5,804 bases of DNA from a virus (taxonomy: Duplodnaviria > Heunggongvirae > Uroviricota > Caudoviricetes). Position numbers and translations under genes: made by a program. Each line of letters starts with the position of its first letter. The stretch's first letter is position 1. Under the pieces are notes generated by a model that was not told the DNA's origin, searched no databases, and saw nothing but the letters and a program-made list of their open reading frames with translations. This document shows positions 4,444-4,687 of this stretch, one piece after another. Location of the stretch: the IMG/VR virus record IMGVR_UViG_2698536355_000005; one strand, given 5' to 3'.

Positions 4444-4576
4444 TTGGCTGCATAAATAATATTTTAAGTTGCAAGTTGGCTATTCGTAGGAATAGAACCT
4501 CAGGCATGCTGAATGCGTTTTCTGAACATTGTTTTATAAACTGTGTCTGCTTGCTGTTGTGATCCTGCTTTTAGTG

Positions 4577-4687
4577 ATGGTGATGATGGATTTCACCAGC
4601 AGGATAATGTTGGTACTGACTGATGGCGCTCTGGTCTGCGGCATTGTGGTATTGCTGTGGCCGATGATGAAAGAACAGAATGAATAA
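4577..4687 (+). CDS. Hypothetical small hydrophobic peptide (36 aa), single predicted TM helix
   Basis: ATG 4577 to TAA 4685-4687: MVMMDFTSRIMLVLTDGALVCGIVVLLWPMMKEQNE. No clear SD. Possible -10 TATAAA at 4535-4540. Below the track size cutoff; speculative. Confidence 0.2.
   Translation: MVMMDFTSRIMLVLTDGALVCGIVVLLWPMMKEQNE

Follow-up and report, generated by a model that had tools for sequence, protein, structure and literature searches.

The DUF3927/TciB Family and Its TerB-Like Partner

Small proteins of the DUF3927 family (PF13064), among them TciB of phage P1 (P1_gp075), are located in phages and prophages, are 51–55 amino acids long, align without gaps, and contain two hydrophobic segments, and all of these features are shared by the open reading frame (ORF) considered here. 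CRISPRi knock-down of tciA, tciB, and tciC in P1 leaves plaque formation unimpaired, and the genes are non-essential (PMC10695390). Beyond this one result, our full-text literature searches for DUF3927, tciB, and tciA turned up the names only in annotations, and no study in which "Tci" had been put to a functional test.

We compared 265 DUF3927 copies, comprising the one in the window (the whole stretch of 5,804 nucleotides analyzed here, IMG/VR record IMGVR_UViG_2698536355_000005) and loci taken from phage records, GTDB genomes, IMG/VR contigs, and encoding contigs. Among the 176 copies that are not of the window type, 173 lie immediately 3′ of a TerB-like gene, tciA (about 142–150 aa), and the junctions of the two genes are mostly overlapping stop and start codons (GTGA, TGATG, or TTGA), to which Evi-type copies add a GGAG motif (−6.4 kcal/mol). 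Of the remaining three, one locus is cut off 51 nt upstream of the gene, another has a diverged TerB end, and the last is a decayed fragment beside a tRNA-like sequence. Homologs also occur in the strictly lytic N4-like phages TR2 and Pollock, as the second gene of a coupled pair. Pairs of TerB-linked genes have Nei-Gojobori dN/dS values of 0.04–0.27 at dS of 0.4 to ~2, and this purifying selection argues that DUF3927 is a family of real proteins. The near-obligate coupling to TerB across P1-like, N4-like, and lambdoid phages is a modest new point in itself, and suggests a two-protein unit of TerB and a membrane adaptor.

The family is small, with 67 clusters at 50% identity (E ≤ 1e-3) among 1.84 billion representatives, and appears to be confined to phages of Enterobacterales. 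Fusions of TerB to TciB were also sought in the same set; the long hits (P0100, P0117, and P0129) proved to be frameshift or chimeric products, and no clean fusion was found among the 1.84 billion representatives.

Identity and Boundaries of the ORF

Two versions of the ORF have to be distinguished in the window:

4529–4687, plus strand: DUF3927/TciB-family ORF, 52 aa, TTG start, TAA stop
4577–4687, plus strand: 36-codon sub-ORF of the preliminary description, from the internal ATG 4577, an alternative start

The 36-codon peptide reported in the preliminary description, MVMMDFTSRIMLVLTDGALVCGIVVLLWPMMKEQNE, is indeed encoded on the plus strand at 4577–4687. However, its boundaries need to be revised, since it represents the C-terminal two thirds of a 52-codon ORF that begins at TTG 4529 and encodes MFYKLCLLAVVILLLVMVMMDFTSRIMLVLTDGALVCGIVVLLWPMMKEQNE. 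An in-frame TGA at 4523–4525 bounds the frame; from 4526 on it is open, and TTG 4529 is its first start codon. An ORF of such size is unremarkable alone, as the window holds 83 ORFs of at least 25 aa. The 52-aa product, however, matches Pfam DUF3927 with 53 bits (cut-off 25; E = 3.4e-14; profile positions 7–49 of 53), and this match, together with the ungapped family alignment, indicates that the ORF is real. It also matches PHROG 1470, "TciB-like," with E = 2.5e-17.

Over 48 positions the protein aligns without gaps to TciB of P1, the lambdoid phages Evi and LMessi, Klebsiella phage 5, TR2, and Pollock, and the ATG or GTG starts of these homologs coincide with TTG 4529. The residues that are invariant in this alignment (M1, K4, L14, D21, F22, T23, L30, D32, L35, W44, and P45) are all present here, whereas positions 6 and 28, conserved as R and S in the rest of the family members compared, are C and L here. 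The protein is 100% identical to RefSeq WP_000499454.1, labeled "DUF3927 family protein" by PGAP in E. coli genomes, and identical to CPT_434_69 ("TciB") of phage 434; at least 995 contigs encode this exact protein. By sequence, the ORF is an already annotated DUF3927/TciB gene. At the DNA level, positions 4440–4910 are 99.4% identical to phage 434 and 97.2% identical to phage 2B8, and only four positions differ from the E. coli E2348/69 locus across 4440–4920 (~99% identity). Among 5,426 complete E. coli genomes, 690 contain the 4440–4910 stretch, at a median of five places each; the E. coli copies number about 3,100 in all, and the related places in these genomes include TerB-linked ones.

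The preliminary description took the product for a small hydrophobic membrane peptide with one helix and a charged tail. Its character as a small hydrophobic membrane peptide stands, but rather than one helix there are two hydrophobic segments (approximately residues 5–20 and 26–45) around a conserved DFTS(K/R) motif, here D21-F-T-S-R. D32-G33 lies inside the second segment, which ends with W44-P45-x-x-K, and residues 1–16, which the 36-aa form lacks, represent the first hydrophobic segment of the family. From this pattern we infer that two short transmembrane helices form a hairpin whose basic ends both face the cytoplasm. The single continuous helix over residues 2–51 that AlphaFold2 predicted from a shallow alignment (pLDDT 79.6) counts against a hairpin, although such a prediction does not settle the topology.

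Variation in the loop between the two segments was seen in E. albertii, where three variants (P0048, P0066, and P0071) carry in-frame tandem seven-residue repeats, (LEAGGWR)n, suggesting that the inter-segment loop tolerates expansion to variable lengths.

A Late-Regulatory Region with a Membrane Moron

The window is the late-regulatory region of a lambdoid prophage, in which the following features precede or follow the ORF:

1–104: end of an IS1 element, 100% identical to IS1 on >5,000 plasmids
839–1405: HNH_3/AP2 homing-endonuclease-like ORF
1380–1982: NinG
1979–2185: NinH
2163–2828: Ser/Thr phosphatase
2825–3448: lambda-type Q, by Pfam
3491–3520, plus strand: lambda-like late promoter pR′ (TTGACT..17..GAAACT), directly 3′ of Q
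3727–4443, plus strand: polytopic membrane moron, 238 aa from an SD-preceded ATG at 3727; a longer ORF runs from 3685
from 4985: DUF1737-SASA sialate esterase, after the small RNA PasD

The promoter at 3491–3520 is one that we take to be pR′ on the basis of its likeness to that of lambda. It is followed by TGACACCAATAATGGG (region 3491–3545, plus strand), which resembles the lambda pause region. Related prophages match the window only from position 105 on, and thus IS1 has been inserted at 104/105 in this copy. A tandem hexanucleotide repeat (ATTTCT, ~8 copies, 596–643) lies upstream of the HNH_3/AP2 ORF. The window contains no tRNAs.

The moron matches PHROG 1521 and carries a precomputed Pfam annotation as PF27470, "TfpB"; local scans with Pfam, NCBIfam, and PHROG provided no named function, and the local Pfam copy gave no match. 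It has a small C-terminal soluble domain. Among ~50,000 phage records, the moron was found only in phages 434 and 2B8, and it is always accompanied by an orphan DUF3927 gene and PasD. Phage 434 (CPT_434_69), phage 2B8, and E2348/69 (E2348C_0687, RS28215) share with the window the order moron, ORF, PasD, and esterase, and the module, with gaps of 85 nt between moron and ORF and 41 nt between ORF and PasD, is conserved in 434, 2B8, and EPEC and EHEC prophages. By contrast, the upstream Q is Q82-like in 434 and in E2348/69 PP2, and lambda-type in the window.

Loss of the TerB-Like Partner by Recombination

Canonical DUF3927 members directly follow tciA, mostly with overlapping stop and start codons, whereas the window copy follows an unrelated membrane protein. 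This holds for all 89 copies whose product begins with MFYKLC: each follows the TfpB-like moron across a gap of 85 nt and not tciA, and the N-terminal variant thus correlates perfectly with the upstream partner gene. Compared with canonical TciB, the window copy has a TTG start without SD, new codons 1–3, and substitutions at R6 and S28.

The boundary of this exchange was located by DNA alignment of window-type and TerB-type loci:

4526–4537, plus strand: recombination junction

DNA homology to TerB-type loci starts at AAA CTG (codon 4, position 4538) and runs through the stop codon into the promoter and the 5′ end of the downstream small RNA, whereas codons 1–3 (TTG TTT TAT) and all DNA upstream are unrelated to TerB-linked tciB loci. 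Since homology begins only at codon 4, we conclude that recombination at the very 5′ end of tciB removed tciA, along with the native start and the coupling of translation, and put other DNA in their place. The orphan status of this copy, with its junction at codon 3/4, is the second modest new point of our analysis.

Three moron-type variants (L100, L103, and L104) are in-frame mosaics with TerB-type sequence, which points to gene conversion among the multiple prophage copies of a genome. The C-terminal tails KEQNE and KRNSLHNA differ by small frameshifting indels in homologous DNA (Evi L004, L103, and L104 compared with window positions 4670–4700).

Translation Signals and Constraint

That the ORF has no clear SD, as stated in the preliminary description, holds for the longer ORF as well. 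Anti-SD energies at the candidate starts range from +0.9 to −0.2 kcal/mol, with −3.9 kcal/mol at ATG 4586, a value reached by 21–36% of all positions in the window. The comparison genes in the window (Q, NinH, esterase, phosphatase, and moron) have −5.9 to −8.2 kcal/mol. The window-type gene has an SD energy of +0.4 kcal/mol, compared with a median of −3.1 and values down to −6.4 kcal/mol for TerB-linked copies, most of which are also stop/start coupled. In E. coli, SD-less translation initiated at TTG does occur in an AU-rich context.

The coding sequence itself looks to be under relaxed constraint on the window lineage. Omega between the window and Evi is 0.50, and on the window branch, polarized with L019 as outgroup, the counts, which are small, are 12 nonsynonymous and 6 synonymous substitutions, including R6C and S28L. 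A sub-lineage on 23 contigs has 6 nonsynonymous vs. 0–1 synonymous substitutions, including L5P and S24R, the latter in the DFTS motif, whereas polymorphisms of the main haplotype comprise 3 synonymous vs. 1 nonsynonymous. None of the 89 moron-type copies sampled has a disrupted ORF, and the TerB-type mosaics are all in frame; however, 78 of the 89 ORFs are identical, and because of this recent spread of the module neither intactness nor dN/dS is decisive.

Transcription in Lysogens and the Adjoining Small RNA PasD

The preliminary description placed the ORF between the moron and a terminator. The first part of this placement is right, but a small RNA gene with its own promoter stands between the ORF and the terminator:

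4691–4719, plus strand: PasD promoter-like elements, −35 TTGACT at 4691–4696 and −10 TTAAAA at 4714–4719
4728–4898, plus strand: PasD, a prophage-encoded, Hfq-bound small RNA of 171 nt (EcOnc13 in EHEC)
4873–4900, plus strand: intrinsic terminator of PasD, by terminator scan

PasD2 of EPEC E2348/69 is a Northern-validated RNA of 172 nt, recovered by Hfq RIL-seq, that starts 41 nt after the stop codon of E2348C_0687 (PMC8550237, Table S6), and PasD is homologous to EHEC EcOnc13, with shared ancestry with STnc100 having been argued (bioRxiv 10.64898/2026.05.13.724894). Positions 4728–4898 differ from the PasD2 region of E2348/69 by one indel, and the promoter-like elements, whose −35 begins 4 nt past the stop codon of the ORF, fit the PasD2 5′ end, although a strict promoter scan made no call there. 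Over the whole window, Rfam reported STnc100 at 4698–4902 with 41.3 bits; this falls below the gathering threshold (GA) of 47, as would be expected if PasD is a diverged relative. The ORF itself had no Rfam hit. In TerB-type loci the stop codon of tciB overlaps the −35 of the STnc100/PasD promoter. PasD, which adjoins the ORF, is a separate gene, and its Hfq-bound, trans-acting RNA does not complement the ORF sequence.

Lysogens do transcribe the ORF. In published EPEC RNA-seq (PMC8550237), the moron (717 nt) has a BaseMean of 226 and the ORF (159 nt) one of 36.7, whereas Q reaches 69, the esterase 102, the holin 3.5, and pasD2 ~11,000. Per nucleotide, moron and ORF are thus transcribed at a similar level, well in excess of that of the lysis genes. 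Between pR′ and the moron we see no intrinsic terminator, and the PasD terminator is the first strong one downstream of pR′, moron, and ORF. Therefore, a transcript could start at pR′, or at a promoter of the moron itself, and run as far as the PasD terminator. The latter may act as an equivalent of tR′, and the moron could be constitutively transcribed in lysogens.

Origin and Possible Function of the Orphan Gene

We lean toward reading the ORF as a relaxed tciB remnant, weakly translated or untranslated, that hitch-hikes between the moron and PasD. In the native setting, tciB is translated through stop/start-overlap coupling to the TerB-like tciA, and TciB may be the inner-membrane partner or anchor of TciA. 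Recombination at codon 3/4 put an unrelated membrane moron in the place of tciA, the native start, and the coupling. The resulting orphan, which would be co-transcribed with the moron in lysogens and run into the promoter and terminator of PasD, has only a TTG at the homologous position and no SD, and appears to be under relaxed constraint; low or no function is what such an arrangement suggests. Any TciB made from this copy would be expected to sit in the inner membrane as a hairpin of helices. Several observations count against a remnant: the ORF is intact in every sampled moron-type copy and its exact protein widespread, the mosaics all keep the frame, the few polymorphisms of the main haplotype are mostly synonymous, SD-less initiation at TTG does occur in E. 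coli, and the junction shortens nothing and provides a start codon just where the homologs have theirs, which is the outcome that selection for a functional gene would give.

Less probably, orphan tciB is still functional: a small inner-membrane protein would be made in lysogens from TTG 4529 of the moron transcript and would work with the TfpB-like moron, or in trans with TciA of other prophages in the genome, such that moron, TciB, and PasD form one lysogenic-conversion module. The intact, full-length state of every sampled copy with its start at the homologous position, the conservation of the moron-ORF-PasD module in 434, 2B8, and EPEC and EHEC prophages, the similar read density of moron and ORF per nucleotide in EPEC lysogens, and the median of five related places per genome, including TerB-linked copies, would all agree with this. 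However, there is neither SD nor translational coupling, conserved residues are substituted and nonsynonymous changes are in excess on the window lineage, and full-text literature searches for DUF3927 and tciB brought up mentions at the level of annotation only.

A more specific proposal, which we regard as unlikely, is that the TfpB-like membrane protein has taken on orphan TciB as a subunit or regulator, in a module with PasD that alters envelope physiology or excludes superinfecting phage. Such a module would be expressed from pR′ or a moron promoter in lysogens, and TciB-type hairpins would then be interchangeable membrane adaptors for phage cargo, either TerB-like or TfpB-like. In any case, as the widespread EPEC/EHEC/434 version is a recombination-made orphan, it is not the copy with which to begin functional work on TciB.

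It is improbable that the product is instead a 36-residue, single-helix peptide made from ATG 4577 or a neighboring ATG, possibly on a transcript started at TATAAA. ATG is a better start codon than TTG, and some pipelines do call the 36-aa form (P0078, 82 contigs) or a 37-aa form, with the former still scoring 51 bits against Pfam. However, no SD beyond chance is present at 4577, 4583, or 4586, and the first 16 residues of the longer product are homologous to the first hydrophobic segment of the family, with K4, L5, and L14 conserved. The −10 proposed in the preliminary description, TATAAA, is present at 4535–4540, but it coincides with codons 3–4 of the 52-aa ORF, has no −35, and was not called as a promoter in our scan.

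We consider it very improbable that the ORF encodes a type I toxin restrained by an antisense or neighboring small RNA, as had been entertained for this locus. With Hok, Ldr, Ibs, TisB, ShoB, and ZorO it shares a small (<60 aa) hydrophobic product, a prophage location, and weak translation signals, and, lacking an SD, it lies beside the abundant small RNA PasD. Unlike type I toxins, however, it has two hydrophobic segments and no antisense or complementary small RNA, and its homologs are coupled in operons to a TerB-like gene and occur in lytic N4-like phages; further, knock-down of P1 tciB has no effect on plaque formation, and the gene is not reported to be toxic. The antisense relationship that had been raised from a run of His codons on the opposite strand did not survive a promoter and terminator scan, in which neither antisense element was found; the run itself (HHHHH) exists at the end of a 68-codon minus-strand ORF (4571–4777), but is only the complement of GTG ATG GTG ATG ATG, i.e., Val and Met codons. 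No complementary small RNA was found. PasD lies downstream on the same strand; at most 8 consecutive nt of it are perfectly complementary to the ORF transcript, and 61% of dinucleotide shuffles equal or better the PasD-ORF duplex energy, although RNAduplex is crude on such long sequences and the 8-nt longest match is the more useful figure. PasD was thus also rejected as an antitoxin or regulator of the ORF, its complementarity being no better than chance. In addition, the part of the RIL-seq tables covered here has no entry for E2348C_0687.

A chance ORF in a non-coding spacer, whether moron 3′ UTR or the region upstream of the PasD promoter, is hardly credible and, as far as chance origin is concerned, refuted: translation signals are lacking, and in either type of module the region never occurs apart from the PasD/STnc100 promoter, but the sequence is homologous to a protein-coding gene (Pfam E = 3.4e-14) whose homologs are under purifying selection with DNA diverged to saturation.

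Annotation of the Region

For annotation, the ORF is to be read as a 52-aa DUF3927/TciB gene and the adjoining terminator as that of PasD, and the idea of a type I toxin can go. Several records also place small ORFs over PasD, at 4744–4902 on the plus strand and at 4571–4777 and 4704–4910 on the minus strand, with labels such as "putative membrane protein" (434), E2348C_1013 (antisense to PasD1), and PGAP pseudogene fragments. Since they lie inside or antisense to a mapped small RNA and match no family, these ORFs are probably spurious.
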